Shown here piece by piece: positions 2,696-33,092 of a stretch of DNA of 64,000 nucleotides. Under the pieces are notes generated by a model. That model was not told where the DNA came from, ran no database searches, and saw only the letters and a list, made by a program, of their open reading frames with translations. Position numbers and translations under genes: made by a program. Each line of letters opens with the position of its first letter. The stretch's first letter is position 1. Origin of the DNA: an uncultured Gemmatimonadota bacterium (GTDB lineage Bacteria > JAAXHH01); assembly GCA_951812955.1 (NCBI GenBank), contig OX638340.1, positions 736,001-800,000 on the forward strand, read 5' to 3'.

Positions 2696-2757
2696 GGAGT
2701 CTCCGGATGATGTAACCGCGATCACGCGATCGTAAGAACCTTAGAACGTGAACTACG

Positions 2758-2807
2758 AGTACCGAGGAACTGGAACTTCCAGTACCGATTAACCTGCAGT
2801 ACCGATT
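2758..2807. promoter_or_regulatory. palindrome CTGGAACTTCCAG (2770-2782) plus three direct copies of AGTACCGA(T/G) in the purD/ctpA divergent intergenic region
   Basis: Seen directly in the sequence. AGTACCGAGG is at 2758, CAGTACCGATT at 2780 and CAGTACCGATT at 2797. The spacer region is AT-richer and carries a TTGACA-N17-TAGTAT candidate promoter at 3145-3173. Confidence 0.3.
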
Positions 2808-3287
2808 CGATCCGGTTCGTGCGAGTTGAAGACGTACGTCTCGATTGCATCTGAATTCTGAATGGGTTTACGGTGAAACCAAATCCGGTACGCGTGCGTT
2901 CTTACAATTGTCATTAAGGAATTGCTATAAAGGAACGAGTGCGTCTATCTAATATGAATACTCGTAGTTTGACGGAAATGAATACCCGCATTTTGAAGAA
3001 ATCCGGGGTGATCGCGATGCCGGATGGAATCCACCCGGATACCAGGTTCCATGACGATCTGCGAGATCGCCAAAGTTAAAGAAATACGAAGGAAGTGTCA
3101 AGGCGGGAACTTAAAAACACTGCCGCGAAATGCCCCGAAAACCATTGACACGGAACATCTTCGCGTTAGTATTGTCTAGTGCTTCAAAAACGATATACGC
3201 ACGCCTTCGAATGAACCCGAAAAGACGTTTCCGGTGCGAGACCGTTTACATCCCGGACAGAAGACCGGGACGAAGGAGTAAGGCCTT

Positions 3288-4919
3288 ATGTCGATCATGA
3301 AGAGACCGAAATACCTGATCCTGCTGGTTTTTGTAGCGGTCGGATCGTTCCTGCTGGGCAGTACGGCGGACAGGACGATACACGCGGCGGACAACATCTA
3401 CTCGAGCACCAGGCTGCTGATGGGCGTACTCAGCCTTGTCAACGACAACTATGTAGAGGAAGTAGAGCCCGGTGAGTTGATCTACGCCGCAATCGACGGT
3501 ATGCTCGAAGTGCTCGATCCTCATTCCAGTTTCCTGAGCAAGGAAACCTTTGCCGAAATGGGAGAACGCTTCAGTGGGAATTTCTACGGCATCGGGATCG
3601 AGTTCGACGTGCTGGATGGATTCCTGTACGTTATTTCCGTGATCGATGAATCGCCATCGGAAGCCGTTGGCCTCCAGTCCGGCGATCGTATTGTTCGGAT
3701 TGACGGTGAATCGGCGATAGGCATCAAGCATGACGAGGTCCGACATAAATTGCGTGGGGAGAAAGGAACCAGGGTGGACGTAACTATCGAACGGACCGGA
3801 GTCGACGAGCGGTTCGACGTTACGATCACCCGCGATCGGATTCCCATTCGCAGCGTTCGGACGTCCATCATGCTGGAAGACCAGACCGGATACATCCAGT
3901 TGATCCGGTTCGCCAAGACCACTTCGCGGGAACTCGAGACTGCCCTGGACAAGCTTCAACAAGACGGCATGGAGCGGCTGATACTCGACCTGAGAGGCAA
4001 TTCCGGAGGCTACCTGGACCAGGCGGTGGCGGTGTCGAGCAAGTTCATACCAGAAGGCCGCGTAATCGTTAAAACCATGGGCAGGAACCGGACTTCCAAC
4101 CAGACGTTTCAATCTCTTAGCGGAGTGCGCCACCGCGATATGCCCCTGGTGATCCTGCTGGACCATCGCTCCGCCTCCGCATCCGAAATCGTGGCCGGCG
4201 CCGTTCAGGACTGGGACCGGGGCGTGATTGCCGGAACCCGCAGTTTCGGCAAGGGTCTCGTACAGACTCTGTTCGCGGAGCCTCACCTGGCTGACGGTTC
4301 CGCGCTAAAACTGACGACGGCCCGATACTACACCCCAAGCGGTCGCATGATCCAACGGGACTATAAGAACAAATCCTACCAGGAGTACATCGAAGGCTCG
4401 TTCAGCGAATCCGGCGAGGCGGCGACGGGGGAGGATTCCGCTTCAGCATCGGACAACCCTGACCGCCCTGAATACGTCACCGCTGCAGGGCGTACAGTCT
4501 ACGGAGACGGCGGCATTTCTCCCGATGTCGTTATCAAGACGCCGAAACGCCAGTACCCCTTCGTTATAGGCAAGTACAGGGGCTGGATGCCTTTCGACCG
4601 GGCCTGTTTCGAATTCGCCAATACCTACGGCGTGACCCGGCCGGACCTCAGGGACGACTTCGACACCTTCCTGAACGAGTTTCAGGTCGACGAGGCCATG
4701 CTGGAAGCGTTCAAGACCCAGGTCCGGGAGTCCGGAATATCCTTCTCCGACGATGAATTCAGCGCCGATCTGGACGTCATCGAACTCCAGTTGAAACGGG
4801 CCCTTGCCCGGAATCTCTGGGGTGACGAGGAAGCCAGCCGCGTAGCCGCGGCCGGAGACGAACAACTCCAGCGGGCCCTTCTGTTGTTCAATTCTCACGA
4901 GATGCTGGTTCAGCACTAA
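3288..4919 (+). CDS. ctpA: carboxyl-terminal processing protease (S41 family, PDZ-containing)
   Basis: N-terminal TM/signal, a PDZ region (GLQSGDRIVRIDGES), and the S41 catalytic core LILDLRGNSGGYL...SASASEIVAGA...TRSFGKGLVQT. Confidence 0.85.
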   Translation: MSIMKRPKYLILLVFVAVGSFLLGSTADRTIHAADNIYSSTRLLMGVLSLVNDNYVEEVEPGELIYAAIDGMLEVLDPHSSFLSKETFAEMGERFSGNFYGIGIEFDVLDGFLYVISVIDESPSEAVGLQSGDRIVRIDGESAIGIKHDEVRHKLRGEKGTRVDVTIERTGVDERFDVTITRDRIPIRSVRTSIMLEDQTGYIQLIRFAKTTSRELETALDKLQQDGMERLILDLRGNSGGYLDQAVAVSSKFIPEGRVIVKTMGRNRTSNQTFQSLSGVRHRDMPLVILLDHRSASASEIVAGAVQDWDRGVIAGTRSFGKGLVQTLFAEPHLADGSALKLTTARYYTPSGRMIQRDYKNKSYQEYIEGSFSESGEAATGEDSASASDNPDRPEYVTAAGRTVYGDGGISPDVVIKTPKRQYPFVIGKYRGWMPFDRACFEFANTYGVTRPDLRDDFDTFLNEFQVDEAMLEAFKTQVRESGISFSDDEFSADLDVIELQLKRALARNLWGDEEASRVAAAGDEQLQRALLLFNSHEMLVQH

Positions 4920-4982
4920 CGAGTTTATAAAAGGGACCCGCGGACCGCGGAATAACAAGGCCACGCCGGAGAACGCCAAGGA

Positions 4983-7900
4983 TTGACCGTGCCGAGTAAA
5001 ACCTCCCTTTCCGCCTGGCACGCGCTGCGAGACCGGCTCCACGAACTTCGAATCCGCAGCCGTTGGGTTGTCATCGCCGAAGGCTTGTTCATCACCGGCG
5101 CGCTGATCTGCGTCCTCGCGCTTTCCCTCGCCACGCTCGAATCCTACCTCTACCTCGACCCGGTGGTTAGGCTGGTACTGATCTCGGCGAGTATCATGCT
5201 CCTGACGGCAGTGCTGGTCCGGCGAAATCTGCATCGTTTGAGACACGGTTTTTCCGACGATGACCTCGCGCGGCAGGTCGATTCCCAGTATCCTGAATTG
5301 AACGACCGGGTCACCGTGGCCTTGCAACTCTCCCGGCAGCGGGAAGAGGGATCCAAGGCCTCGCCCGCACTCCTGGACGCGGCCGTTACGGATGCCGCAA
5401 AATACACCCGGACGGTGGATTTCAAAGAAGCAGATCAAAGATTCCGCATCGCCCCGGCCGCCAAGAGATTCGGCCTTGCCGCGCTGCTATTGATACTGGC
5501 GATGGCCGCGTTCGGCGCGCCGCTTACCGGCGCCCTCGGCCGGCTGGCAAGCCCCCTGACCCATTTCCAGCCTCCGCAACGCACGTTTCTGAGCGTCCTG
5601 CCGGGAGACGTGGAAGTTGCGGCCGGAGGCCACGTAACGATTATGGCCGAAGCGGTCGGCGAGATGCCAGGCCGGGCCATCATGCACCTGACCTCGGACG
5701 AAGGATCGAGCAACTCCGTGGATATGAAGGCCACGGCGCCGGGTTCGTACTCCCACACCCTGCGGGAGATCAGGGAGAGTCTGACCTACGTAATCGAGGC
5801 CGGAGACGCCGTCAGCCATTCCTTTCGCATCAAAGCCATCGATCGCCCGTTCATCGGCGCGCTGCGCCTTACCTATCATTATCCTGCCTACACCAGGCTT
5901 GAACCCAGGACCACCACCGAAGGAGGCGACATCGTCGCACTGAAGGGAACGCGGGTGGAACTGGCCGCCGTGGATGCAAGCCGGAATCTGTCGGAAGCGG
6001 CGCTTTTCATCGAGCATTCAGACGAACCGGTAGCCATGAAGGTTGTAGACGACACGGCCACCGTACCGCTGACCGTGCAGTCAGATCAACGGTACCGCAT
6101 CATGTTGCGCAACATGGACGGCCATGAAAGCGCGGACCCCGCATGGTACCGGATTATCGCGTTGCCGGACCGCATGCCATCGCTCCGCATCCTGTCGCCC
6201 GGCCGAAATACAGATCTCACGGAGAACATGGTCGTTTCGTTTCTGGTATCAGGCACGGACGACTTCGGGTTCTCGGGAATGAACCTGGTCTACCGTAAAG
6301 AACCCGGAGGCGAGGAGCGGAACCTGCCCATCCCCGTGGACACGGAGTCCACGATGATTTCGCAGCCATTCGTCTGGGATCTCTCAAATGAAAACCTCTT
6401 TCCGGGGGACGTGGTCTCCTACCGGATCGAATTGTATGACAACGACACGATTTCGGGGCCGAAGCGGGCGGTAAGCCGCACCTATACGCTCCGGTTTCCT
6501 TCGATAGAAGAGATATACGATCAGATCGACGAAACACAGGAACAACAGGTCTCGGACATGGAGGATATGCTGGAAGAGCAGGAAGAAACCAGGAAGAAAA
6601 TCGAAGAACTGAATCGGACCCTCGAACAGAAAGCAAGGGAAGAAGCCGACGGGATTCAGTCGGAGGAATTGTCCTGGGAACAGAAAAAGGAGATCGAATC
6701 CGTTCTGACCGGCCAGGAACAGGCGACCGACGAACTCCTCAAAGCGGCCGAAGCGATCAGGGCGACCATGGAAACACTGGAAGACCACGATTCGCCCAGC
6801 CAGGAGCTCATCGACAAGATGGATCAACTGCGGAAGCTTTTTCAGGAGATCGCCACGCCCGAATTGCTGAAGGCTATGCAGGAATTGAAACAAGCCCTTC
6901 AGTCCTTCGACAACGAGCAGCTGAAGGCGTCGATGGAATCCTTCGAATTCGAGCAGGAAGAGTTTTTGAAACGACTGGAGCGCAGCCTCTCCATTCTGAA
7001 GCAAATCCGGATGGAGCAGCAGTTGATGGCTGCCGTTCGACAGACTCAGGACCTCGCTGCACGACAGGACGAGTTGCGCTACGCAACGGAGAATTCGTCG
7101 AACAGCGAAGAGCGATTGGAACTATCGGAAAAGCAGCAACAGTTAGGGGAGGACACAGGCTCCCTGCAGCGCGACCTGGAAAGTCTCGCCCGCGCGATGG
7201 AAGCGTTCAGGGACATGCCCGCAGAGCGTGTGCTCGAGGCCGCCGGCGATATGGAACGCCGGGATATGACGGGAAACATGGATCAGATCGCCGAACAATT
7301 GAAAGTCGGCAGGATGCAGCGGGCGATGGCAGGCCAACAGGAAATGTCCCGGGCGCTTTCCGGTCTGAACCAGCAACTGCAGGACATCCAGGATCAACTA
7401 CAGGAAGACCGGATGCGGGAAATCGCCGAAGGAATGCGCCGCGCGATGCACCAACTGGTCGATCTTTCCGTCAGCCAGGAGACCCTTAACGAACGCACCC
7501 GGAGCCCGGGTGGGTCCGGAACCCGGATCAACATTCTTACGGAAGACCAGCAGGGACTCCTTGGCGGCGCTTCGCTCGTGGCCAACGACATCGTATCCAT
7601 TGCGCAGAAAACGCCGTTCATTTCTCCTTCCATCGGACGAGCGCTGGGAGAAACACTGAACAGCATGGAGCGCGCGGAGGACCACCTGGCCGAACAGGAA
7701 CGCGATACGGCGTCCGGGGAACAACTGGCCGCCATGAAGTCTCTGAACGAGACCGTACTGGCCTTGCAGCGGTCCATGAGCAACATGGCGAATTCCGGTT
7801 CGTCCTCCGGCATGATGGATCTCATCGAAAGGCTTCAGGGCATGGCCAGGCAACAGACCGGAATTAACGACCAGATGGACCCGATGATGGATGAATCGAA

Positions 7901-8372
7901 CGGCAGCATGGACCTGGAAACCCAGGCACAGGTATCCAGGCTGGCAGCCAGGCAGGAAGCGTTGCGTAAGAGCCTGGAACAACTGCGTAGTGAGCAGCAG
8001 GGTCATCAGGAACAGATTCTCGGCAGGTTGCAGGAAATCGAAAACGAGATGGACGACACCGTACGTGAGTTGCAACAGTTCCGGGTCGACCCCGACCTGG
8101 TGGAGCGCCAGCAACGGATCCTGTCCAGGTTGCTGGACGCTTCGCGGTCCATTCGCGGACAGAAACGCGAGGAAAAGCGGCGAGCCGCACCTGGCGAGGA
8201 CCTCGTTAACCTTCCTGCGCCGGACGACTTGCCCGAAGATCTGACCCAGCTGGAACGCTCCCTCCGGGATGATATCCTGGGTCGTGTCGAAGAAGGCGCG
8301 TATCCCCGGGAATACGAAGAACTCATACGCGCCTATTTCCGCGCGCTTGCACACATTCCTGTAGTAAACTAG
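4983..8372 (+). CDS. large membrane-anchored coiled-coil protein (two N-terminal TM helices; possibly DUF4175-like), function unknown
   Basis: 1129 aa. Residues ~30-80 hold two hydrophobic helices. Residues ~500-1100 are an extremely E/Q/L/M/R-rich predicted coiled coil. No catalytic motif is recognisable. The DUF4175 assignment is from memory only. Confidence 0.6.
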   Translation: MTVPSKTSLSAWHALRDRLHELRIRSRWVVIAEGLFITGALICVLALSLATLESYLYLDPVVRLVLISASIMLLTAVLVRRNLHRLRHGFSDDDLARQVDSQYPELNDRVTVALQLSRQREEGSKASPALLDAAVTDAAKYTRTVDFKEADQRFRIAPAAKRFGLAALLLILAMAAFGAPLTGALGRLASPLTHFQPPQRTFLSVLPGDVEVAAGGHVTIMAEAVGEMPGRAIMHLTSDEGSSNSVDMKATAPGSYSHTLREIRESLTYVIEAGDAVSHSFRIKAIDRPFIGALRLTYHYPAYTRLEPRTTTEGGDIVALKGTRVELAAVDASRNLSEAALFIEHSDEPVAMKVVDDTATVPLTVQSDQRYRIMLRNMDGHESADPAWYRIIALPDRMPSLRILSPGRNTDLTENMVVSFLVSGTDDFGFSGMNLVYRKEPGGEERNLPIPVDTESTMISQPFVWDLSNENLFPGDVVSYRIELYDNDTISGPKRAVSRTYTLRFPSIEEIYDQIDETQEQQVSDMEDMLEEQEETRKKIEELNRTLEQKAREEADGIQSEELSWEQKKEIESVLTGQEQATDELLKAAEAIRATMETLEDHDSPSQELIDKMDQLRKLFQEIATPELLKAMQELKQALQSFDNEQLKASMESFEFEQEEFLKRLERSLSILKQIRMEQQLMAAVRQTQDLAARQDELRYATENSSNSEERLELSEKQQQLGEDTGSLQRDLESLARAMEAFRDMPAERVLEAAGDMERRDMTGNMDQIAEQLKVGRMQRAMAGQQEMSRALSGLNQQLQDIQDQLQEDRMREIAEGMRRAMHQLVDLSVSQETLNERTRSPGGSGTRINILTEDQQGLLGGASLVANDIVSIAQKTPFISPSIGRALGETLNSMERAEDHLAEQERDTASGEQLAAMKSLNETVLALQRSMSNMANSGSSSGMMDLIERLQGMARQQTGINDQMDPMMDESNGSMDLETQAQVSRLAARQEALRKSLEQLRSEQQGHQEQILGRLQEIENEMDDTVRELQQFRVDPDLVERQQRILSRLLDASRSIRGQKREEKRRAAPGEDLVNLPAPDDLPEDLTQLERSLRDDILGRVEEGAYPREYEELIRAYFRALAHIPVVN

Positions 8373-8381
8373 GCGGCGATC

Positions 8382-10262
8382 GTGTATCGCAGTTCCAGAA
8401 CGCAAAGCGGCAGTGCGACACCGCGACGTAGGAATCTCGTATGCGGTTTGCTCGCCGCGTTAATGACAGCTCAGTTATTGCTGTTCTCGAGTGCCGAAGG
8501 ACAGACCGGACGGACGGACGACCTGAACAGGAGGATCGAGCAGGCCAGGAGTCTGGAACGTCTCCGGCAATACGACAGGGCGGTTGCCATATTCGAGCGC
8601 GTGTTGCGGGATGCTCCGGACAACCGGTCCGCGCTCAACGGCGCCGTACGGCTTTACTTCCGGCTGAACGCCTTTGACCGGGCGATACCTCTGCTCGAGA
8701 CCCATATTGAGAAAAACCCCGACAGAATAAACCTGCGCGGCATGCTTGCCGAAGCGCTTTTCGGCGTCGGGCGGGACGGCGACGCGGAGGAACAGATCCG
8801 AATCCTGCAAGACCGTTTTCCGCAAAGTGAATCGGCCGTGAACGAGATCGCTTATCTGTACCTCGACAGGCAGGCGTACGACAAGGCCATCCAGACCTAC
8901 CTTTCCGGACGGAAAAGACTGGGCAAACCGGGGGCTTTCGCCCTTGGTCTCGCCAGTGTCTACACCAGTGCGTACGACATACCGGGCGCCGTACGAGAAT
9001 ACGTGCGGTGGTTGACGCAGCAACCCCGTCAGCAGCGTATCGTCAATGATCGCATCGACCTGCTCGCGGGTTCGGGAGGCCAGGAACTCGTTGAAGAGTC
9101 GCTGAAATCAGCGGTGTCCGAACATGGCGGCAGCAAGGATGCACACGATCTGCTCGGTAGTTTTTACCTGCGATCCGATAAACCCACTGAGGCCTTGGCC
9201 GCGTACCGCGTTGCGGACCGGTTGGACGGTGCCAGCGGGAAATACCTTATCCGGTTTGCGGAATGGGCCCTGCGGGAAGGGCACTATCGGAACGCCATTG
9301 GCACATATCAGGAATTGACCAGGACAACCATGTCGGATTCCCTGCGCGCCGAGGCCTATTCCGGCCTCGCCATGGCGTTTCAGGAAAGTGGCGCCGTGAA
9401 CGATGCCGCCGAGACCTACCGGAATATCATCGCGCAGTATCCGGGATCCAGGTTCCGCGAAGAGGCGATGTCCAACCTGGCGGACCTGCACCTTGTTCAC
9501 TACCGGGACGCGCCACAGGCCCTCGAACTGTACCGGTCGCTGCTGGACGGTCCGGACGACGCATCCACGTCGAAGTACCGTGAAAATGCCCTGTTTGGCA
9601 TCGCGGAGAGTTACGTCGTCATGGGCAGTCTCGAAGACGCGCTTGTCTATTACAACCGCATCAGGGACCCTGCTTCCGGATTCGCCGATTCTGAAACCCG
9701 TGCGCGGACGAATTACCATCTGGGTGAACTGGCGTTATTTCAGGGCCGATTGGACGAGGCCCTCGAACTATTCCACGAGACGGCAGACCGCTATTCGGGG
9801 AGTCCCTTTGCCAATGATGCGTTGGAATGGACCATCCTGATTGCCGAGGGCCGGCAGGGAGGAGACCGTTCGTTTACGGAGTATATCCGGTCGGTGCTGC
9901 TGCAACGTCGGCACAGGGACCTGGAAGCCCTGGCAGCCTGCAAGTCTCTAGTCGAGGAGCACGCGCAAAGTCCCATCGCGGACACAGTCATCCTGGACAT
10001 CGGGATGATACTCGACCGGCTGGGCAAGCCGTTCCAGGCGGTCGCGGCCCTTCGCGACCTGATCGAGCGGCATCCGGATAGCCGCCATAGCGCCACTGCC
10101 CGGCGGCGGATCGCGGAAATCTACGAAACTGGCATCGGTGATATCCCCCAGGCGCTCACGGAGTATGAGGCCCTGCTCCTGTCCCACCCGGACCACTTCA
10201 AAAACGACGCCGTCCGCCGCAAGATAAGAGAACTGACCGCAAACCATCCGCCCCTGCCGTGA
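8382..10262 (+). CDS. tetratricopeptide-repeat protein with an N-terminal signal/TM
   Basis: Repeated A-x-x-x-Y/F...G-x-x-x-A TPR-like units run along the whole length. A hydrophobic N-terminus is present. It lies 9 bp after the previous gene. Confidence 0.75.
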   Translation: MYRSSRTQSGSATPRRRNLVCGLLAALMTAQLLLFSSAEGQTGRTDDLNRRIEQARSLERLRQYDRAVAIFERVLRDAPDNRSALNGAVRLYFRLNAFDRAIPLLETHIEKNPDRINLRGMLAEALFGVGRDGDAEEQIRILQDRFPQSESAVNEIAYLYLDRQAYDKAIQTYLSGRKRLGKPGAFALGLASVYTSAYDIPGAVREYVRWLTQQPRQQRIVNDRIDLLAGSGGQELVEESLKSAVSEHGGSKDAHDLLGSFYLRSDKPTEALAAYRVADRLDGASGKYLIRFAEWALREGHYRNAIGTYQELTRTTMSDSLRAEAYSGLAMAFQESGAVNDAAETYRNIIAQYPGSRFREEAMSNLADLHLVHYRDAPQALELYRSLLDGPDDASTSKYRENALFGIAESYVVMGSLEDALVYYNRIRDPASGFADSETRARTNYHLGELALFQGRLDEALELFHETADRYSGSPFANDALEWTILIAEGRQGGDRSFTEYIRSVLLQRRHRDLEALAACKSLVEEHAQSPIADTVILDIGMILDRLGKPFQAVAALRDLIERHPDSRHSATARRRIAEIYETGIGDIPQALTEYEALLLSHPDHFKNDAVRRKIRELTANHPPLP

Positions 10263-10264
10263 CC

Positions 10265-11701
10265 ATGTCCAGATCGCTTCACATACATCTTGTGGCCATC
10301 TGCGGTACAGGGATGGGCGCGCTCGCGGTGATGCTCAAGTCTCTGGGTCACCGGGTTACCGGAAGCGACGAGAACGTCTATCCCCCAATGAGTACGGTGC
10401 TTTCGGAGCAGCGAATAACTGTATTTAATGGTTACGCCGCATCCAACCTGGATCCGCCGCCGGACCTAGTAGTCATCGGAAACGCGGTTTCCCGGGGCAA
10501 TCCCGAGGCCGAAGCGGTGCTCGAAAGGAAGATCCGGTATGCGTCCATGCCGGAGACACTCAAGACATTCTTTCTATGGGACCGCAAACCGGTCGTGGTG
10601 GCGGGAACACACGGCAAGACGACTACGACGGCGATGCTCGCATGGGTGTTCACCGAAGCCGGCCTGGATCCAAGCTACATTGTCGGCGGCGTTCCCATCG
10701 GCTGGCAGACCGGCGCGCGGCTGGGATCGGGCGACCTGTTCATCCTGGAAGGCGATGAATACGACAGCGCCTTCTTCGACAAACGTGCGAAGTTCCTTCA
10801 TTACCTGCCCGATACGGTGATCATAAACAACATCGAATTCGATCACGCGGACATTTACGATTCGCTCGATGAGATCGAGCTTGCCTTCAGAAGGCTGGTC
10901 AACATCATACCGGAAAACGGCCTGTTGATCGGCCCGGCGGACGACGCCCGTGTCCGGGCGCTCGCTTCACGCGCATTCTGCCCCGTCCATACCCTGGGCG
11001 CGTCACCGGACGCAAGGTGGTCGGTGCGTGACGTATCCAGCGATCCCGGCGGCACGTCCTTCGACCTGTATGAACTGGGTGAGCACCGCGCCCGTCTCAT
11101 GATCGGTCAACTCGGAATGCACAATGTCAGGAACGCCCTGGCGGTCGTGGCCGCCGCCAGGCATTACGGCGTATCCTGGCCGGATCTGACACGGAGCCTG
11201 AAGTCCTTCCCCGGTGTGAAGCGGCGTCTCGAAGAGCGGGGCGAAATAAATGGTATCGCGGTCTACGACGATTTCGCTCACCACCCCACGGCCGTAAAGG
11301 CGACGCTGGAAGCCCTCAGGAGGGCTTTTCAGGACCGGCGTATCTGGGCCGTATTCGAACCGCGTTCCGCCACGACCATACGCCGGAACTTCCAGGAAGC
11401 CTACGGCGCTGCATTCGACAACGCGGACCGCGTGCTGATCGCGCCGGTCTTTCTACCCGGCAAAGCGCCGGACGGCAACCGTTTTTCAGTGGACGAACTG
11501 TTGGATGGACTGCGCGGGCGGGGTCTGAAGGCCGTCGCCACGGAAAGCGTGGAACAAATCGTCGAACATCTAGCCGAGGAGGCGGCGCCGGGCGACCGGA
11601 TCGTGTTCATGAGCAATGGGGGATTCGGCGGTATCCTCGATAGGACTTTGAACGCGCTGGGGAAAAAACACGCGGTGGAAGCGTCCCGGAAACAGGACTA
11701 G
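10265..11701 (+). CDS. mpl: UDP-N-acetylmuramate:L-alanyl-gamma-D-glutamyl-meso-diaminopimelate ligase (murein peptide ligase)
   Basis: HIHLVAICGTGMGALA...VTGSDENVYPPMSTVL...VVAGTHGKTTTTAML aligns residue-by-residue with the E. coli Mpl N-terminus as I remember it. The start could be the GTG at 10259, which overlaps the upstream TGA. Confidence 0.85.
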   Translation: MSRSLHIHLVAICGTGMGALAVMLKSLGHRVTGSDENVYPPMSTVLSEQRITVFNGYAASNLDPPPDLVVIGNAVSRGNPEAEAVLERKIRYASMPETLKTFFLWDRKPVVVAGTHGKTTTTAMLAWVFTEAGLDPSYIVGGVPIGWQTGARLGSGDLFILEGDEYDSAFFDKRAKFLHYLPDTVIINNIEFDHADIYDSLDEIELAFRRLVNIIPENGLLIGPADDARVRALASRAFCPVHTLGASPDARWSVRDVSSDPGGTSFDLYELGEHRARLMIGQLGMHNVRNALAVVAAARHYGVSWPDLTRSLKSFPGVKRRLEERGEINGIAVYDDFAHHPTAVKATLEALRRAFQDRRIWAVFEPRSATTIRRNFQEAYGAAFDNADRVLIAPVFLPGKAPDGNRFSVDELLDGLRGRGLKAVATESVEQIVEHLAEEAAPGDRIVFMSNGGFGGILDRTLNALGKKHAVEASRKQD

Positions 11702-21865: not shown

Positions 21866-23437
21866 GTGTTACGATTCTACTGCCGTCTTGCCTGTCTGAT
21901 CTGCCTGCTTGTGGCCGGACCCGCTCCAGCACAGGAACAGGAAACCGCCGCGACGGGAGCGGATTCCACCAGCGCCGGCGTCGATCCCCTGCTTTTGCCG
22001 GCGAACAGTACCGGCGACATCGATTTCACCGTGGATGTGAGCGGTTTCAGGGGGCAGGAAGAACAGATCTACCTCGAGTTCTACCTGCTGTGCCGTCCCA
22101 GTGAATTTACGCTCGAAGAAAGAGACGACAGGAAATACGTCGCCGACTTCTCGATTGATCTGAGCGTCGTCGACGAACAGGACAGCACCGTATTCCATTC
22201 GGTTCAAAAAAGGGAATACCAGACGGACCGTCCTGTAGTCGTCACCAAAAGGGGCGAGGAAAGGGTTGTGATGGAACAGATCGCCGCGGGTGTTGCCGCG
22301 GGTACGTACCGCGCGAAAGTTATCGTGACCGACCTCAACTCCGATCGCTATGGCGAAGCTGTGAAACCCTTCGTGGCCCGGCCTTTTAACGATCCCGAAC
22401 TATCTGTGAGCAACCTGCAGTTATCGACGCTCATCCAGCGGACCGAAGAGGACAATCGCTTCACAAAAAACGGTCTGCTTGTACTGCCCAATCCCCTTAG
22501 GATTTTCGAGAAATGGACCGAAATGCCCGAGGACGGCGCTTACAAACCTCGCAACATGTTCCTTTATTTCGAGATATACAACCTGGTCCCGGATTCGACC
22601 GATCAAAAGGCCACATACGACATTTATCCCGCGGTTACCAGCCATGCCAACGAAATGACTTTTCCCCTCGCTCCCAAAAAGAACAGGCGCATTTCCGGTT
22701 CCGCCGGACTAGACGTGATCGCGCTGGACTACATGACCTTTCCCGATGGTATCTTTACCCTCGACATCAGGGTCAGGGACGTGCTGGCCGGGACGGAAGC
22801 GTCGAGTTCGGCCGTCTTCGAGATCATCCAGCCTCCACCACCGCCCCCGCCCGTCATGGTGTTGACCGAGGAACAGGCTAAGCGGGGCCGGAGGATGCTG
22901 GCGATCCTGGCGAACAAACGGGAGCGCGACCTCTACGACAATCTCGACCTCGAAGGCAAGACGGAATTCCTGATTGCCTTCTGGCGCATGCGCGATCCTA
23001 CGCCCGAGACCCCTGAAAACGAATCCATGATGGTGTTCAACGAGCGGTTTTCCTATGCCGACTTTCAACTGGGTGGGGCGGAAAGCGACCGGGGCGACGT
23101 CTTCATCCGATACGGCCAGCCAGAGGAAATCGAACGGCACGATTCCAACAACATCATGAAATCCTACCAGGTATGGTACTACACGGAAGGGGTACAAGGC
23201 GATCCTTCACGGACCTCCGAAGGCGGGCGCCATTTCTTCGTTTTTGGTGACCGGCGGGGCATCGGCAGGTACGAACTGGTGCATTCCTCGGCACGGGGAG
23301 AACTCTTCAATCCCAATTGGCGCCAGGACCTGCTCCTCATGAACGAAGCCTTATTTGAGGACGGCAGTGGTTTCATGACGAATCCGGGGCTGCTCGTACC
23401 CAACAGCAGTCCGGACGCCGATCCCGCCAAACCCTGA
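21866..23437 (+). CDS. secreted GWxTD-domain protein (variant motif GAESDRG)
   Basis: Signal peptide present. The C-terminal region FWRMRDPTPETPENE...LGGAESDRGDVFIRYGQPEEIERH matches the GWxTD-domain signature as I remember it, with W->A and T->S substitutions. A poly-Pro linker PPPPPPP sits at 22834-22854. Confidence 0.55.
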   Translation: MLRFYCRLACLICLLVAGPAPAQEQETAATGADSTSAGVDPLLLPANSTGDIDFTVDVSGFRGQEEQIYLEFYLLCRPSEFTLEERDDRKYVADFSIDLSVVDEQDSTVFHSVQKREYQTDRPVVVTKRGEERVVMEQIAAGVAAGTYRAKVIVTDLNSDRYGEAVKPFVARPFNDPELSVSNLQLSTLIQRTEEDNRFTKNGLLVLPNPLRIFEKWTEMPEDGAYKPRNMFLYFEIYNLVPDSTDQKATYDIYPAVTSHANEMTFPLAPKKNRRISGSAGLDVIALDYMTFPDGIFTLDIRVRDVLAGTEASSSAVFEIIQPPPPPPPVMVLTEEQAKRGRRMLAILANKRERDLYDNLDLEGKTEFLIAFWRMRDPTPETPENESMMVFNERFSYADFQLGGAESDRGDVFIRYGQPEEIERHDSNNIMKSYQVWYYTEGVQGDPSRTSEGGRHFFVFGDRRGIGRYELVHSSARGELFNPNWRQDLLLMNEALFEDGSGFMTNPGLLVPNSSPDADPAKP

Positions 23438-23551: not shown

Positions 23552-24868
23552 TCACTCCACATACCTGCATACGAATGCGTCCAGCGTCTTGCCGAGGCGG
23601 CCGGCAACCGAAGGCATCATGCGGACCGTCAGGCGGACTCCTTCAGGTTCGTCTTCACGGTGCAGGACATCCCCCGACTCATACGCGACGGATACAGCGT
23701 GCCCATTCTCATAGGGTATCAGCAGTTCCAGTTCCACGCGATGAAGGTCGATCCTCTGTGAAATAGTCCGGCGCAAGCGGTCTATATCACCGGAATCCAG
23801 GGCGGACACCGCAATGGCGTCGGGATCGGCCAGCGTCAGGATATCCAGTGCGTCCGGACTCTCCAGGCGGTCTGTCTTGTTGAAGACCAGCAGCAGGGGA
23901 AGTTCGGAAGCTCCCAGTTCCGCCAGCACCTGGTTCACCGTCGCGATATGTTCAACGTGATTGGGATGGCTGCCGTCTACGACGTGAACCAGCAGGTCCG
24001 CGTCGTACACCTCGGTCAGCGTGCTTCTGAAAGATGCAATCAGGTGATGGGGCAGTTTTCGGATAAAACCCACGGTATCCGAGAGCAGAACGGGCTGGCC
24101 CGGGGTCAAGTGTATCGCGCGCGTGGTAGCGTCGAGGGTGGCGAAAAGCCTGTCCTCAATCAACGTGTCCGCTTGGGTGAACGCGTTGAATATCGTGGAC
24201 TTCCCTGCATTGGTATAACCGATCAGGGCGATACAGAACATGGCGCTTCGTCGCTGACGCTGGCGTTGATAGGAAGCGGTTACGTGTTCGAGATTCCTGC
24301 GCAGGTGGGTAATGCGACCGCGGATCAAACGTCGATCGATTTCCAGTTGCGTCTCGCCGGGGCCTCTTACCCCAATGGCGCCGCCCGATCCCGCCGCCAC
24401 GCCGCCTTCCTGCCGCGACAGGTGGTCCCACTGCCTGGTCAGCCGCGGCATCATATACTGCAGTTGCGCAAGTTCAACCTGAAGCTTGGCCTGCCTCGAC
24501 TTTGCACGCGAGGCGAATATATCGAGTATCAGGCCGCTGCGATCCAGAATGCGCCGTTCGATGACACGGTCCAGGTTCCTGACCTGCGCTGGTGTGAGAT
24601 CATCATCGAATATCACGAGGTCGATTTCCTCCGCCTTGCACAGTTCGGCGATCGACTTGGCCTTTCCGGTTCCGATATAAAACGCCGGATGCATGGCGCT
24701 GCGAACCTGGATGATCCGCTCTACGATTTCCGCGCCGGCGGTATCGGCCAGCAGGGCGAGCTCATCGAGCGACTCTTCCATTTCGGCGACCCGTTCGTTG
24801 GAAGGCACCATTCCGATCAACAGGGTGCGTTCGCGGGTTTTTCTGGGTATTTCGTGCATTTCATGCAT
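23552..24868 (-). CDS. hflX: GTPase HflX
   Basis: HflX N-terminal domain, then G1 GYTNAGKST, G3 DTVGF and G4 NKTD motifs. Confidence 0.85.
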   Translation of the reverse strand: MHEMHEIPRKTRERTLLIGMVPSNERVAEMEESLDELALLADTAGAEIVERIIQVRSAMHPAFYIGTGKAKSIAELCKAEEIDLVIFDDDLTPAQVRNLDRVIERRILDRSGLILDIFASRAKSRQAKLQVELAQLQYMMPRLTRQWDHLSRQEGGVAAGSGGAIGVRGPGETQLEIDRRLIRGRITHLRRNLEHVTASYQRQRQRRSAMFCIALIGYTNAGKSTIFNAFTQADTLIEDRLFATLDATTRAIHLTPGQPVLLSDTVGFIRKLPHHLIASFRSTLTEVYDADLLVHVVDGSHPNHVEHIATVNQVLAELGASELPLLLVFNKTDRLESPDALDILTLADPDAIAVSALDSGDIDRLRRTISQRIDLHRVELELLIPYENGHAVSVAYESGDVLHREDEPEGVRLTVRMMPSVAGRLGKTLDAFVCRYVE

Positions 24869-24910: not shown

Positions 24911-27181
24911 TTAGGACATTGCTTTCGCGGAGAAAATCCTCTCCACGCGATTGCGGATCCGGCCGGCCAGTCCGTTTCCATGGGGCAGCGCGACTTCGTG
25001 ATCGGCCGGGCCACCATCTCCGGCAATCCGTGCCGAGTTCCCCCCGGCTCGCGTACCCGAAAGCCAGTATTCTGCCAGCATGAGCGCCATCACCAGGACG
25101 ATCAGAGATTTCCAGATTTCATATCTGCCCGTGGCGCTGAAGGTCCCGCCGCGGAGGACGTCCGGGGAGCCGTCCAGGTCCTTCAGGACAAGATACGTGC
25201 CGTATCCGAGAAATCCGGCCGCCCGTACCGGGGTGAATCGAGCCAGGTCCGATTCCCGCGTGTCCGTGTTTACCGCGAACGCCTGCACGACGGCGTCACC
25301 GTCCCGCAGCGTATACACGCCGGGTTGTTTCGCATCCGGAACTTCCACCGTTATTCCGCTCCGGCCGATACGCGAATTGACCGTCTCCGAACGGCCCGTG
25401 GGATACTCCAGGTTGAGGTCGGCGTTCGCCGGAACGCCGATCAACGGCTGCACCACCGGGTGACCGGCCAGAAATCCTCCATCGGCAACCGTCACGGCGG
25501 GATGTAGATACCTGACGCCTCGATGCATGAACGGTACAAAAGCGCTTCTCAATGCCAGGTCGCTCCAACCGGTGTTCACGTCTGAAGCGACCAGAAGCGC
25601 CCTCCCGCTGCCGGATCGGCCTTCGAGAATCGCCGGCGTGCCGTCCATGAACCGGGCGATCACCCGCGCGCCGCGGTCCGCCTCCACGGCATAGGAAGCA
25701 TAGAACCGCACCGCGCCGGTCGACATCGATTCTGCGGAACGGCCATCGAAGCGGAAAACCGGATGCTCGTAATCGACCTGGTCAATCCGGTGAAAGGACG
25801 TCTTCCGGTCCGGCATCCCCCTTCGAGCCGTAATCGAGCATCCGAAGACATCAGAAAAAAACCCGTGTCTATAAACCGCCGGGGCCACCCCTTCTCCGAG
25901 AAATACCAGGACCCCGCCACCGGAGGAAATGTAACGCTCCATGCTAGCAAGCCGCGCCGGCGTCAGTTCCATTCCTCCATCCACGATCAGTACGCCCGAT
26001 TCGTACAAATCGCTATTCAACACGTCGGCGGATGCAGTCCGCAGGTCCACGGGCGTGACCAATCCGCCCGACGGCTTCAGCACCTGCTCGATGAAGTACC
26101 TGGATTCGGTCAGTCCAACGGCGGTAACGCCAAACGCTTCCGGGACATTGAGGGTGAAATACCGCCGATTGTCTGCTGCGAGGTCATCTTCGTCCAGTTC
26201 CACATAACCGGAATACCGGCCCGGGTTGTCGATGACGACATTGAACTGAACTGAACCCGTTCCGCCCGTCTCGGCAGTAACCTGGCGGCTGTCACGCGTC
26301 TCGCCGTTTATGACGAGACGGACTTCCCTGGTCCGACTGGTCTGCCCGGTCCGACTGGTCTGCCCGGTGCGCGCCGATGCCTCGTTCCGGCTGGTAAAAG
26401 TCGCGACAAACTGCTCCGGCTGATTGCGGATCAGCAGGCCCTCGCTTACGGAAACTGCGTCGATACTTGCGTTGTCCACGTCCCTTGCCGCGTAGGGATA
26501 CAGGTAAATAGGCGTATGCGGTTCCGATTGCGCTGTCGAGTCGGTTTCCGCCATATCCTGCCAGTCGGTTCGCTGTAAATCGGACAGCAGGTGGATTTCC
26601 TTGTTCGCAGAAACAACGCCGGCCAGTTTTAGCCGCGCGAGACTCAGGGCGCCGGCGATATCCCCCGTTCTTTCCGATACTTCCGCTTCCGCCAGGCGCG
26701 CTCTGAGCACTTCCTTCCGGGCCGTGGGAACTTGCGGCATGGTCTCGGGCGGCATGGCCGACAGAATGAGCAGGCCCTCGTCGCCTTGCCGCATCCTGTC
26801 GATAATTCGGCCGGCCTCGGCCCTGGCAGCGGCAAATGGCGTATCTCCGTAGCGTCCGGCACCCATGCTGTACGAATTGTCCAGCACAATGGTATAGACC
26901 GTCCGCTGCTCCAAACCGCTGCCGAACATGGCGCCCGCCAGGCCTTCAAGAACCGGCCTGGCGAAAGCCAGCACCAGAAACAGAATGATCAGGGTGCGAA
27001 GCAATAGAAGCAGAAGTTCCCGGAGTCTCAGGGCCCGGGATCGTTGCAGGTGATGACCCCTGATGAAAATCACGGAGCTGAAGTCGACGGTGGAGACCCG
27101 CTGGCGATGAAACAGGTGCATGATCAGCGGAACGGCGACCGCTACGAGTCCAAACAGCATCAGCGCGTTCAGAAAGGTCAT
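24911..27181 (-). CDS. BatA-like membrane protein: N-terminal double-TM domain plus VWA domain
   Basis: MTFLNALMLFGLVAVAVPLIMHLF, then a second TM, is a BatA/TIGR02226-like N-terminus. The MIDAS-like motif VLDNSYSMG is present. The track ORF starts at 27205. Confidence 0.7.
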   Translation of the reverse strand: MTFLNALMLFGLVAVAVPLIMHLFHRQRVSTVDFSSVIFIRGHHLQRSRALRLRELLLLLLRTLIILFLVLAFARPVLEGLAGAMFGSGLEQRTVYTIVLDNSYSMGAGRYGDTPFAAARAEAGRIIDRMRQGDEGLLILSAMPPETMPQVPTARKEVLRARLAEAEVSERTGDIAGALSLARLKLAGVVSANKEIHLLSDLQRTDWQDMAETDSTAQSEPHTPIYLYPYAARDVDNASIDAVSVSEGLLIRNQPEQFVATFTSRNEASARTGQTSRTGQTSRTREVRLVINGETRDSRQVTAETGGTGSVQFNVVIDNPGRYSGYVELDEDDLAADNRRYFTLNVPEAFGVTAVGLTESRYFIEQVLKPSGGLVTPVDLRTASADVLNSDLYESGVLIVDGGMELTPARLASMERYISSGGGVLVFLGEGVAPAVYRHGFFSDVFGCSITARRGMPDRKTSFHRIDQVDYEHPVFRFDGRSAESMSTGAVRFYASYAVEADRGARVIARFMDGTPAILEGRSGSGRALLVASDVNTGWSDLALRSAFVPFMHRGVRYLHPAVTVADGGFLAGHPVVQPLIGVPANADLNLEYPTGRSETVNSRIGRSGITVEVPDAKQPGVYTLRDGDAVVQAFAVNTDTRESDLARFTPVRAAGFLGYGTYLVLKDLDGSPDVLRGGTFSATGRYEIWKSLIVLVMALMLAEYWLSGTRAGGNSARIAGDGGPADHEVALPHGNGLAGRIRNRVERIFSAKAMS
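26330..26365. repeat. perfect in-frame 18-bp tandem duplication (GGTCCGACTGGTCTGCCC x2) inside the BatA-like CDS
   Basis: Seen directly. On the minus strand it encodes TGQTSR-TGQTSR. Confidence 0.9.
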
Positions 27182-27412
27182 TCGACTTCCTCCACGTGGG
27201 TTCATTAATATACCCCCGGCACCTTCGCTCGTAAAGCGGTATCATCGGCTGGCCGGAGGCTGCTTGTGCGGGAATCAGCGGCACATTACAGGCGGGCGCG
27301 GGCCGGCCGGATGGCGTGTTCAGGGTCGATTTTCCTTGACACACCGGTCGGCTGGGGGTATCGTATTTCTACTATTCGGTCAAACCCGCTGGCAACCCCA
27401 GAAGGAGCGTTT

Positions 27413-28549
27413 ATGGAGGCATGGCTGGCCCTGGAAGACGGCACAGTCTACGAAGGCGAATCCTTTGGCGCTACCGGGGAAAAGGTTGGAGAAGTCGTAT
27501 TCAACACCAGCATGATCGGATACCAGGAGGTATTGACCGACCCGTCGTATAAAGGTCAGATCGTCACCATGACCTACCCGTTGATCGGAAATTACGGCGT
27601 TAATCCCGGCGATCTGGAATCGCTTCATCCGCACGTGGAAGGATTCGTGGTTCGGGAATACCAGCGAAATCCGAGCAACTGGCGTTCCACCGAAAGCCTG
27701 CACAAGTTCCTGGACGATCACGGCGTCGTTGGCATTTCCGGAATCGATACCAGGGCACTGACCCGACGGCTTCGTGTCGAAGGCGTCATGCGCGGGGTCA
27801 TATGTTCCGGTTCTGCGGCCCCGGACTCACTCGTAAATAAGGCTAGGACCGCGCATAGCATGATAGGCATGGATCTGGTCCGCGAGGTGACCACGGACCG
27901 TCCATACCGGTGGGAGGGAGATCGCCGTATCTACACAGACCCTCCTGATGGAGAACCGGACAAGATTTGGAACGACTTTGACGCGCCCGGTGATTTCCGG
28001 GTCGTCGTCATGGATTACGGAGTCAAGCACAACATCCTGCGGAACCTGGCGCGCCGTGGCTGCCAGGTCCTCGTTCTGCCGGCGGACTACACGGCCGAAC
28101 AGGTGCTGCGGATGAACCCCGACGGCATCATGTTATCCAACGGACCGGGCGATCCCGGCGCCGTTCAGTATGCCATAGAAGAGTTGAAAGTCCTCATCGG
28201 GCAGAAGCCCATTTTCGGCATCTGCATCGGCCACCAGCTACTCGGCATGGCACTCGGCGGGGAAAGGTTCAAACTGAAGTTCGGCCACCGCGGCGCCAAC
28301 CAGCCCGTAAGGCAATGCGAATCGGGACGGGTGGAAATAACCGCCCAGAACCACGGTTTCGCCATTGACGCTGCCACACTTGACGAGTCCGAGGTGGAGT
28401 TGACCCATATCAACTTGAACGACCGCACGCTTGAAGGGCTCAGACACCGGCGGTATCCGGTGTTTTCGGTACAATATCACCCCGAGGCTTCGCCGGGGCC
28501 GCACGACGCGGATTACTTGTTCGACCGATTCATTGCATCCATGCAGTAG
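27413..28549 (+). CDS. carA: carbamoyl-phosphate synthase small (glutaminase) subunit
   Basis: [20 protein letters not shown]...[17 protein letters not shown]... and a GATase region with GICIGHQLL and a catalytic Cys. GAAGGAG RBS lies 6 nt upstream. The track ORF starts at 27266. Confidence 0.9.
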
Positions 28550-31332: not shown

Positions 31333-33003
31333 CTAATTAACCAAATACCATTTTAGGTTCGAACCTGGAAGGTTAACTTTCACTTCCTTGAATTCAAGGA
31401 GATCCAGATTTCCTGTAAATTCACCCCGCAGTAAAACTCCTTGATCTTCATACGGTCCGATGAGAGAGTCTTCCTTATTGTCAAGTTTAATCTTCTTACC
31501 GTCTAAGGTTTCGAAAGTAATGTCCTTGAACTCTCGTGGCTTGCCAATGTCAGCCGTTGCATACACGTTTCCAAGCACCTGGTTTGCGTCCAGAGAGTAC
31601 CTTTGGGCCACAGACTCAGTCGTCGACCTTTGACTGTGCATCTCTATTGTTACCACTTCAACACCATCCTTATTGCGTCCCACAACACGTACAGGTTCTC
31701 CAAATGCTGAGACACGAGAATCGGTAACCGCTGCTATCCGATCATCAAGCAATGGATGTGTTCGGAACGCCGTAAGGTTCTTTCCATCTTCCCCTGTAAA
31801 GTAGTCCGAATAATACCGTAGTTTCCTCAATACCAGGCTAAAGGCATCGATGCCGCGCTGACCGTACAGCCGTTCCATGTACAATGCCGCCATCGCATCT
31901 GCTTCTTCCTCCATAGAGCGCGGATAGCCTTCATAGAAAACATCTGTAGCCGCTTTTGCGAATATGTATGTTAATCCTCCCAAGACCTGGATTTCGTCAT
32001 CAGATTTCCCCGAAGCAGCACCTACTGCCGCAGCGAATATGCTCAACCCCGTTGCTATAAGTTGCTTCTTCTTCTGATTCTGGTAAATTCGATAGCTATG
32101 TCGTCTTTCTACGTGTGCGATTTCATGTGCCAGTACAGCTTCGATCTCCAGATCGCTCTCTGAAGATTCCAACAAACCTCGATTTACGTATACAAAACCA
32201 GTTGGTACTGCGTACGCGTTGATCTCATCGTCTTCCATAACCGAGAATCGATAGTCGTAACCTTGTAGGGGTATAGGCCAGTGATCCAACACGCGTTTTC
32301 CTATCTCCCTTGCCCGGGACTGAAGGTCATCATCAGTCGCCATCTGATTCGCACTCTGGATCACTTGCACTGAGTACAATCCAAGTACACGTTCAGTGGA
32401 ATAGTCACTTACTAGTGGAGTCGATTTAAAACACAATGCACACGGGCGCATTCCCGTTTCTTCCGCTTCTTCAATTGAACCAAAAGGATGCTGCATGTCA
32501 GGATGAGGTAAATGATTGCTGGACGCCACATGGTACATTTTACTATCAGTGTTTCCTATCAATACTTCATATTCAGTGGAATGTTCATCCAACCTGAAAC
32601 ATAAAGCCAAACCCGTTTTAAATGCCTCCCGACCCATTACCGGTGAATGCAAGGGAGAAGAAAAACGAACCTGGCCCTTGCCCAGTCGAGTGCTTCTGAC
32701 TTCTACTTCTATTCGGTCTTCCTTTGCCTTGATTGATCGAATCTCGATCGGTTCATCTTTGGGGATTCGGAACAGATTACGATAACGTCTAGAATGGGCG
32801 TAATAATAGGTATTACCCTCGTGTTGATAGTAAGTCAGAGGATTTTGATGTATACTGCCTCTAAGTATTGCCTGACGTCCTTTTAATTCATTCTCTAGTT
32901 CCTTTACCATCTTCGAGGATACTTTTTGTGCAAATAGGTCTTCAGAAGCCACGAGACAAATCACGATGCACATATACCGAACTAAATTGCGGTCCATAAA
33001 CAT
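31333..33003 (-). CDS. secreted M48-family zinc metallopeptidase (BepA/HtpX-like HEIAH...RRH) with long unknown N- and C-terminal regions
   Basis: HExxH zinc motif AHEIAHVERRHS. N-terminal signal/TM. The gene is markedly AT-richer (~45% GC by eye) than its surroundings. The track ORF extends to 33051. Confidence 0.7.
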   Translation of the reverse strand: MFMDRNLVRYMCIVICLVASEDLFAQKVSSKMVKELENELKGRQAILRGSIHQNPLTYYQHEGNTYYYAHSRRYRNLFRIPKDEPIEIRSIKAKEDRIEVEVRSTRLGKGQVRFSSPLHSPVMGREAFKTGLALCFRLDEHSTEYEVLIGNTDSKMYHVASSNHLPHPDMQHPFGSIEEAEETGMRPCALCFKSTPLVSDYSTERVLGLYSVQVIQSANQMATDDDLQSRAREIGKRVLDHWPIPLQGYDYRFSVMEDDEINAYAVPTGFVYVNRGLLESSESDLEIEAVLAHEIAHVERRHSYRIYQNQKKKQLIATGLSIFAAAVGAASGKSDDEIQVLGGLTYIFAKAATDVFYEGYPRSMEEEADAMAALYMERLYGQRGIDAFSLVLRKLRYYSDYFTGEDGKNLTAFRTHPLLDDRIAAVTDSRVSAFGEPVRVVGRNKDGVEVVTIEMHSQRSTTESVAQRYSLDANQVLGNVYATADIGKPREFKDITFETLDGKKIKLDNKEDSLIGPYEDQGVLLRGEFTGNLDLLEFKEVKVNLPGSNLKWYLVN

Positions 33004-33092
33004 CCTCCTAGTAGTAAGTTTGTAGTTGTGAATCACCTGTGCTATTACCATGTCCTGCTATTACCAAATTTCAGAAAGCTTGCTTTATTAGC

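Follow-up and report, generated by a model that had tools for sequence, protein, structure and literature searches.

DUF4175 and a secreted TPR protein as the conserved pair within a four-gene array of an uncultured Gemmatimonadota bacterium

Four co-directional genes lie at positions 3288-11701 (+) of the DNA analysed here, a stretch of 64,000 nucleotides (nt; "the window") from an uncultured Gemmatimonadota bacterium (assembly GCA_951812955.1, contig OX638340.1, positions 736,001 to 800,000). According to the list of open reading frames (ORFs) and their translations, they encode proteins of 543, 1129, 626 and 480 amino acids (aa), separated in this order by gaps of 63 nt and 9 nt and by a 4-nt overlap. 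This matches exactly the layout given in an original prediction made from the letters alone, which had interpreted the array as an envelope-remodelling operon: a CtpA protease and a tetratricopeptide repeat (TPR) adaptor resembling the Prc-NlpI and CtpA-LbcA pairs, a large coiled-coil membrane protein inserted between them as a new partner, and the murein-recycling ligase Mpl. The gene calls of that prediction were correct, and three of the four products face the periplasm. The genes are:

3288-4919 (+): ctpA-like gene for an S41 C-terminal processing protease, 543 aa (ORF list, Pfam, NCBIfam)
4983-8372 (+): gene for a DUF4175-family membrane protein, 1129 aa, TTG start (ORF list, Pfam, AlphaFold)
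8382-10262 (+): gene for a secreted all-TPR protein, 626 aa, GTG start (Pfam, NCBIfam)
10259-11701 (+): mpl, 480 aa, GTG start, the start overlapping the stop of the TPR gene by 4 nt (TIGR01081)

The 1129-aa protein was assigned to the Pfam family DUF4175 (PF13779) with 47.9 bits against a gathering threshold of 27.3 (E 7.2e-13), the match covering aa 272-968 and profile positions 175-768 of 825. None of the separate domains reached the Pfam DUF4175 threshold by itself, and the N-terminal, Ig and helical segments run separately against Pfam at E<=1 returned nothing meaningful. No NCBIfam model of any kind matched the protein, including the alphaproteobacterial model TIGR02302, which we take to describe a related protein type. 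Many relatives carry a precomputed PF13779 annotation, and NCBI gives three of them (P0033, P0054, P0062) the name "DUF4175 family protein". The relatives are about 1,100-1,150 aa long and stem from Latescibacterota/Gemmatimonadota, Zixibacteria, Calditrichota and Acidobacteriota; the genome scan described below adds KSB1, Ignavibacteria and Marinimicrobia. A profile of 29 relatives was run against 1.84 billion cluster representatives (50% identity) and detected 28,056 of them at E<=1e-3, of which 13,071 reached E<=1e-30. Judged by profile score and spread, the 1129-aa protein is a member of DUF4175, a widespread but uncharacterised family. The original prediction was right that no function is assigned to it, though the protein does fall into a named family.

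The anatomy of the DUF4175 protein was predicted with AlphaFold on a 29-sequence alignment (mean predicted local distance difference test score 78.7) and from hydropathy. Three hydrophobic segments were found at aa ~28-50, ~58-80 and ~160-185, and AlphaFold places a helical hairpin at aa 7-87, short helices at aa 92-150 and a long helix at aa 153-189. The charge distribution puts the N-terminus and aa 88-150 in the cytoplasm and, consequently, aa ~190-1129 are predicted to be periplasmic. Membrane anchoring and an E/Q/L-rich helical character, both claimed originally, are borne out by hydropathy and composition. Along the gene, the predicted parts are:

5064-5537 (+): N-terminal membrane module with a transmembrane (TM) hairpin (aa ~28-80), cytoplasmic helices (aa ~88-150) and TM3 (aa ~160-185), from hydropathy, flanking charges and AlphaFold
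5583-6494 (+): three tandem beta-sandwich (Ig/FnIII/MG-like) domains, aa 201-504 (AlphaFold)
6504-8159 (+): E/Q/L-rich helical region of four-helix-bundle-like units, aa 508-1059 (AlphaFold)
8235-8351 (+): two C-terminal helices, aa 1085-1123, after a low-confidence linker (alignment, AlphaFold)

AlphaFold bounds the beta-sandwich domains at aa 201-286, 293-394 and 400-504. This stretch holds many invariant residues, including DDFG (aa 426-429), W465 and DND (aa 486-488), and still aligns with a distant DUF4175 homologue (locus L085; 29% identity, E 2e-39). Mean column identity peaks in the third domain, Ig3 (aa 397-507; 0.56), and is next highest in the last third of the helical region (0.54). 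The helical region as a whole (aa 508-1060) consists of 13.6% E, 11.8% Q and 11.4% L, contains several predicted helices of 48-63 residues and carries at its end, at aa ~1042-1053, the conserved motif RQQRILSRLLDA; the C-terminal helices contain YPxEYExLIRxYFRAL.

For comparison of gene neighbourhoods, a genome collection was scanned with a 13-sequence alignment of DUF4175 relatives, yielding 79 loci with 10-kb flanks, which were compared by tblastn with the window proteins and, after rough prediction of their ORFs, by clustering all products against each other. The 21 loci nearest to the window (L001-L021; DUF4175 identity 44-97%) belong to metagenome-assembled genomes (MAGs) from varied samples, several of them labelled Latescibacterota or Gemmatimonadota. 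In these loci, the order ctpA-DUF4175-TPR-mpl was present wherever the contig reaches, and the TPR/mpl junction was abutting or overlapping throughout. The order was confined to these loci, in which the tsaC, purD, GNAT, class-V aminotransferase and SDR genes were equally conserved and further neighbours were kept as well. As such unrelated flanking genes are kept to the same degree, the four-gene order reflects general synteny and carries no specific signal. Within the clade, the most divergent member (L021, a groundwater Latescibacterota MAG) has a gene for a 759-aa 5'-nucleotidase/metallophosphatase between ctpA and DUF4175 (L021:7597-9876, +) and a further ORF between DUF4175 and the TPR gene; because of these insertions, the four genes do not form an indivisible unit even inside the clade.

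A different picture emerged from the 58 more distant loci, with DUF4175 identities of about 26-36%. Wherever enough of the 10-kb flanks was available, neither ctpA (0 of 42 loci) nor mpl (0 of 36) was found. An orthologue of the TPR protein (about 620 aa, 21-31% identity, mostly over more than 85% of the length) was encoded downstream of DUF4175 in 34 of 46 loci and by the very next gene in 25. Directly upstream, 30 of 44 loci carry a gene for a secreted protein of about 229 aa, identified as DUF4159 (PF13709, 215.8 bits), and in 16 of 36 loci the TPR gene is followed by one for a secreted protein of 420 aa. Two loci labelled Latescibacterota, L035 and L050, have DUF4175-TPR without ctpA or mpl, L050 with DUF4159 upstream and L035 with the 420-aa protein downstream. 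Since the pair occurs elsewhere without ctpA and mpl, these flanks appear to be derived in one sub-lineage. On this distribution, ctpA and mpl are lineage-specific neighbours outside the conserved core, and the conserved partner of the TPR gene is DUF4175, not the protease. The original prediction had itself named lack of conservation of the S41/DUF4175/TPR/mpl order in related genomes as evidence against its reading, and outside the 21-locus clade this is what we found. The large protein is not a new partner inserted into a protease-adaptor module; its gene anchors a DUF4159-DUF4175-TPR cluster that is far older.

The gene for the 420-aa protein comes immediately after the TPR gene at L056:14902-16164 (+) and at 16 further loci. 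Its product shows 59-65% identity across loci that carry the labels KSB1, Marinimicrobia, Latescibacterota (L035) and Eisenbacteria, and it contains the long invariant motifs HLHHEDFTGQYGKFY, GGFLFAMCSATD and GHDPEDYQH. No match was found in Pfam, NCBIfam or the PDB sequences. In profile-profile comparison with DUF4159, it shared a 15-residue "Y..GGFLFA" strand motif alone (probability 56%), which hints at a similar fold without demonstrating homology. The protein has the look of an enzyme under strong constraint that has escaped annotation. Neither DUF4159 (Pfam-scanned ORFs, tblastn) nor the 420-aa protein or the Ignavibacteriales neighbours (tblastn) had a match in the 64-kb window. Other neighbours of DUF4175 are variable and comprise mostly envelope-biogenesis genes, among them those for SurA-like peptidyl-prolyl isomerases (PPIases), SecDF, MurB and Mfd. 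In one MAG labelled Cloacimonetes, the next gene downstream of DUF4175 is murB (L045:13323-14411, +), a lineage-specific peptidoglycan-synthesis neighbour in parallel to mpl in the window.

In some still more distant contexts, precomputed annotations place DUF4175 in operons with MoxR, DUF58 and VWA proteins. Locus L080 (Blastocatellia) reads TPR+Peptidase_MA_2 - DUF4159 - bpMoxR - DUF58 - BatA/VWA - DUF4175, and L085 reads DUF4175 - TPR+Peptidase_MA_2 - bpMoxR - DUF58 - BatA - DUF4159 - GATase1_like/MG2. In L082 (Polyangia-type) and L087, DUF4175 overlaps a TPR/Peptidase_MA_2 gene. These TPR partners with a zincin-like Peptidase_MA_2 domain (L080:444-3065, L082:10991-12577, L085:11487-13121, L087:10942-12540) occur on Acidobacteriota- or Myxococcota-type contigs; the FCB-type TPR partner, including that of the window, is without the domain. 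A degenerate Peptidase_MA_2 domain in the window TPR protein was considered and rejected, there being no Pfam match and no significant BLASTP similarity. The window itself contains one gene related to the VWA component of these operons:

24911-27205 (-): gene for a membrane protein with BatA_N (7.1e-17) and VWA_2 (2.7e-07) domains, 764 aa

It lies 16.5 kb from the array on the other strand, between hflX (23552-24868, -) and carA (27266-28549, +), and its product is a full-length homologue of the BatA proteins of L085 and L080, with 27-28% identity over about 650 aa (E 4e-49 and 6e-43, respectively). Given this similarity, it is probably a dispersed component of the DUF4175 system.

The identities proposed originally for the other three products (CtpA/S41, TPR, Mpl) were confirmed by Pfam and NCBIfam scores. 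The 543-aa protein matches Peptidase_S41 (2.3e-46) and PDZ_2 (2e-11) in Pfam as well as TIGR00225 prc (290 bits, cutoff 218.6), and its translation shows SASASE and FGKG motifs, which we take to be the S41 catalytic Ser and Lys sites. It consists of an N-terminal signal or anchor, the PDZ domain, the S41 core and a 186-aa C-terminal extension. The nearest solved structure is that of Pseudomonas aeruginosa CtpA (7rpq; 227 bits, E 3e-66, aa 42-357), E. coli Prc being a weaker match with 108 bits. The C-terminal extension (aa 358-543; 4356-4916, +) has no Pfam match, even when run as a separate segment at E<=1, and does not align to the C-terminal dimerisation region of P. aeruginosa CtpA or Bacillus subtilis CtpB. 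The whole protease including the extension is kept in the close clade, with 58-98% identity over about 100% of the length. The 480-aa protein scored 469.5 bits with TIGR01081 (Mpl; cutoff 388.7), whereas the MurC model reached 327 bits and stayed under its own cutoff of 335.1. On these scores the protein is Mpl, the UDP-N-acetylmuramate:L-Ala-gamma-D-Glu-meso-DAP ligase.

The 626-aa protein has many TPR matches in Pfam and begins with a signal of the signal peptidase I type (…FSSAEG/Q) without a lipobox, its sole Cys being located at the start of the hydrophobic core. Among 48 TPR orthologues, a loose lipobox pattern was present in just two. The TIGR02795 YbgF TPR model matched in two stretches (96.4 bits, cutoff 90.1) and a KSB1-type orthologue scored 93 bits with the same model. 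Similarity to LbcA (PA4667; 7rqf, 8sxe) amounted to 25 bits across 85 residues, and no individual stretch passed by itself; the likeness is generic TPR similarity. LbcA ranks under MamA, OGT and designed TPR proteins among the structure matches, and NlpI is not among them.

With respect to transcription, one candidate promoter was noted upstream of the array:

3145-3172 (+): candidate sigma-70-like promoter (TTGACA, 16-nt spacer, TAGTAT), a consensus match in the purD/ctpA divergent intergenic region

Sigma-70-like sites are no more numerous in the region than expected from shuffled sequence, and this site is a bare consensus match. No terminator-like hairpins were found on the + strand in the gaps between the four genes. 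Taking the one sigma-70-like site together with the missing intergenic terminators, a single transcript of all four genes is plausible. Tight co-directional packing of this kind is ordinary for a bacterial genome and not a statistical anomaly. Upstream of ctpA, purD and tsaC lie on the opposite strand, and a GNAT gene is convergent on the mpl stop. The purD/ctpA divergent intergenic region (2726-3287) is long (562 bp), and its G+C content of about 0.53 is the lowest in the first 16 kb, compared with about 0.60 elsewhere; Rfam returned no known RNA family for the whole window, including this region. Three antisense ORFs (3246-4286, 4443-5438 and 7398-8405, all -) overlap well-supported + strand genes in DNA of 53-63% GC and were taken as shadow ORFs.

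Based on these results, we lean, with a confidence only a little above even, towards a reading in which the DUF4175 protein is an inner-membrane-anchored periplasmic scaffold with a conserved TPR partner and forms part of a Bat/MoxR-type envelope system. Three helices would anchor the protein in the inner membrane, leaving about 940 residues in the periplasm, namely three Ig-like beta-sandwich domains and, after them, some 550 residues folded into helices that resemble four-helix bundles. The secreted 626-aa TPR protein would dock on the helical or the Ig part. The pair would be the core of an old envelope cluster, DUF4159 - DUF4175 - TPR - 420-aa protein, in most related phyla, which on some distant contigs appears to have been fused into a "Bat-like" operon of MoxR AAA+, DUF58 and BatA-VWA genes. 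The scaffold may thus belong to an envelope-maintenance machinery serviced by MoxR and VWA proteins, whose other components would be dispersed in this genome, such as the BatA/VWA homologue, or absent. The genes ctpA and mpl have come to flank the pair in this one lineage and are probably co-transcribed with it. The analysis shows the gene structure, the family assignment, the predicted fold and topology and the conservation of the neighbourhood; from these we infer the physical interaction of DUF4175 and TPR, the scaffold role and the MoxR/VWA link.

Several observations weigh against this reading. The predicted template modelling score of the AlphaFold model is 0.44, and the mutual placement of the DUF4175 protein domains is not fixed by it. 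The evidence for a DUF4175-TPR interaction is gene adjacency only. The Peptidase_MA_2 TPR proteins are not detectably orthologous to the window TPR protein (BLASTP E 0.11) and, therefore, the DUF4175-TPR pairing may be analogous across these groups instead of being one ancient pair; what recurs is most aptly described as DUF4175 together with a secreted protein that contains TPRs. MoxR and DUF58 were found beside DUF4175 in just two distinct distant contexts (L080 and L085), and a Pfam scan of 46 ORFs of the window, which left out a few of at least 250 aa, found neither. Finally, we found no functional study of DUF4175 or DUF4159 in the literature, the sole relevant mention being a partial DUF4175 domain match in AdvA of Acinetobacter baumannii (PMC7481262).

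An accidental juxtaposition, in which housekeeping envelope genes became fixed in one lineage, share no more than a transcript, and DUF4175 and TPR are adjacent without mechanistic meaning, is in our view unlikely. It would fit the wide variation of DUF4175 neighbours (SecDF, SurA-like PPIases, Mfd, UvrA/PlsY/CdaA, MurB, PFK), the abundance of TPR proteins in these genomes and the 12 of 46 distant loci that have no TPR gene downstream. However, the same TPR orthologue of about 620 aa follows DUF4175 in many phyla, with frames often overlapping or nearly abutting, DUF4175 is also followed or overlapped by a gene with TPRs in three contexts that are more distant, and adjacency lasting at 26-33% protein identity is unexpected without selection. 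We consider it quite unlikely that CtpA and the TPR protein are a protease-adaptor pair degrading peptidoglycan hydrolases, with DUF4175 as a third partner (scaffold, regulator or substrate) and Mpl tying the module to murein recycling, as was originally proposed. This proposal draws on a protease whose nearest solved relative, P. aeruginosa CtpA, depends on a TPR protein for its activity, on the tight packing without + strand terminator-like sites in the gaps, on an order kept while DUF4175 identity drops to 44% and surviving two insertions in L021, and on the clade-wide abutting or overlapping TPR/mpl junction. General synteny explains the order, though, as unrelated neighbours are just as conserved in the close clade, and outside it ctpA and mpl disappear while the TPR gene stays with DUF4175. 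The window TPR protein and 46 of its 48 orthologues have no lipobox, whereas NlpI and LbcA are lipoproteins; the match to LbcA is generic, and aa 358-543 of the protease do not align with the CtpA dimerisation region. Nor is adjacency a feature of the known systems: to our knowledge, the protease and adaptor genes of E. coli and P. aeruginosa are not adjacent. Of the original prediction, the envelope genes and the uncharacterised large protein stand, and its central idea of a protease-adaptor module does not. Co-transcription of ctpA and mpl with the pair fits a general envelope theme and is not evidence of a dedicated protease-adaptor relationship.

Since the usual flanks, DUF4159 and the 420-aa protein, are missing here, a partner swap is conceivable, i.e., the DUF4175-TPR scaffold of a sponge/coral/marine Latescibacterota-like lineage may have exchanged them for CtpA and Mpl; we regard this as a long shot. 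If true, a membrane platform with a non-lipoprotein TPR protein would present cell-wall hydrolases, or the DUF4175 C-terminus, to the protease and couple this to murein-peptide recycling, which would be a new architecture for the control of peptidoglycan remodelling and a first functional handle on DUF4175. Little credence is also given to DUF4175 as a transmembrane sensor, in which the Ig and four-helix-bundle domains in the periplasm would detect a cue from the envelope and the cytoplasmic helical segment of about 70 residues would relay it. The predicted topology offers both parts, but no output domain (kinase, HAMP, GGDEF, anti-sigma) was found in Pfam or NCBIfam, matches resembling methyl-accepting chemotaxis proteins were at the level expected of any long helical bundle, and no regulator gene is consistently adjacent to DUF4175.

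As a CtpA-adaptor module, the array is of low direct importance, since that reading fails. The interest of the preferred reading, a MoxR/VWA-serviced periplasmic scaffold, lies in DUF4175 itself, a very large family of envelope proteins of about 1,100 aa with a confidently predicted architecture of three TM helices, three Ig domains and a four-helix-bundle rod. Across many Gram-negative phyla the genes for these proteins keep a remarkably constant association with those for TPR, DUF4159 and the unannotated 420-aa secreted protein, and the neighbourhood map yields, besides this hypothesis, a defined set of partners.

Elsewhere in the window, five ORFs have no Pfam match at E<=1e-4 and are candidate genes:

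21866-23437 (+): ORF without Pfam match, 523 aa
44671-45918 (+): ORF without Pfam match, 415 aa
50665-51789 (-): ORF without Pfam match, 374 aa
55215-56162 (-): ORF without Pfam match, 315 aa
19027-19803 (-): ORF without Pfam match, 258 aa

In addition, a gene for an M48-family peptidase (31333-33051, -, 572 aa) adjoins one for a sulfatase (33093-34502, -, 469 aa). Sulfatases are common in sponge-associated bacteria, and the pair would be compatible with DNA of host-associated or marine origin.

Several known systems can be compared with the array. The resemblance to Prc-NlpI consists in an S41 protease plus a TPR protein in the envelope; Prc, however, has about 680 aa and is the weaker match, and the window TPR protein is a 626-aa non-lipoprotein. 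NlpI is a small lipoprotein of about 290 aa. The resemblance to CtpA-LbcA is closer, as the S41/PDZ protease of the window is closest to CtpA among solved structures and a multi-repeat TPR gene of similar size lies nearby. In contrast to that system, the window TPR protein is not a lipoprotein, shows no specific LbcA similarity and has DUF4175 as its conserved partner, and the protease carries a different, 186-aa C-terminal extension. P. aeruginosa CtpA requires its TPR partner for activity, LbcA being a lipoprotein of the outer membrane that has 11 TPRs and binds CtpA through its N-terminal helix, and NlpI is likewise the lipoprotein partner of Prc (PMC8764530). Of the four testable features that define such a pair, the window has the S41 protease with PDZ and Ser/Lys sites; the other three, a lipobox, kinship of the TPR protein with LbcA or NlpI, and co-conservation beyond synteny, were not found. 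A Prc-NlpI- or CtpA-LbcA-like pair is thus not supported: the lipobox is missing, the TPR similarity is generic, and the TPR gene tracks DUF4175 instead. With CpoB/YbgF (TIGR02795), the TPR protein shares the repeat type, the model describing a 119-residue repeat module and not a whole protein; it has neither the Tol-Pal context nor the N-terminal coiled coil of CpoB, so it is not an orthologue.

As for DUF4175 itself, the window protein resembles the Pfam family in its above-threshold score and in its layout, with TM helices at the N-terminus and then a long extracytoplasmic part that is Q/E-rich and of low complexity; it differs in belonging to a divergent, longer variant (about 1,130 aa) that is characteristic of Latescibacterota, Zixibacteria, KSB1, Ignavibacteria and Marinimicrobia. 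Bat-type regions comprise MoxR, DUF58, BatA/VWA, BatD, TPR and SH3 components, and neither DUF4175 nor DUF4159 is among the Bat-region components described there (PMC5700661). The classic Bat operon includes BatD and BatE, the latter an SH3/TPR protein. Of the defining features, the window contains a BatA_N+VWA protein and a TPR component, and neither MoxR nor DUF58 turned up among its scanned ORFs. Named operons of the Bat/MoxR-DUF58-VWA type are batI of Bacteroides fragilis, bb0170-bb0176 of Borrelia and bat of Leptospira; RL3499-RL3502 of Rhizobium leguminosarum are reportedly counted among the MoxR-DUF58-VWA operons as well. What connects the array to these systems is that both are envelope-located multi-protein systems with TPR components, that the window has a BatA_N+VWA homologue, and that distant contigs encode DUF4175, TPR and DUF4159 in one operon with bpMoxR, DUF58 and BatA_N+VWA.

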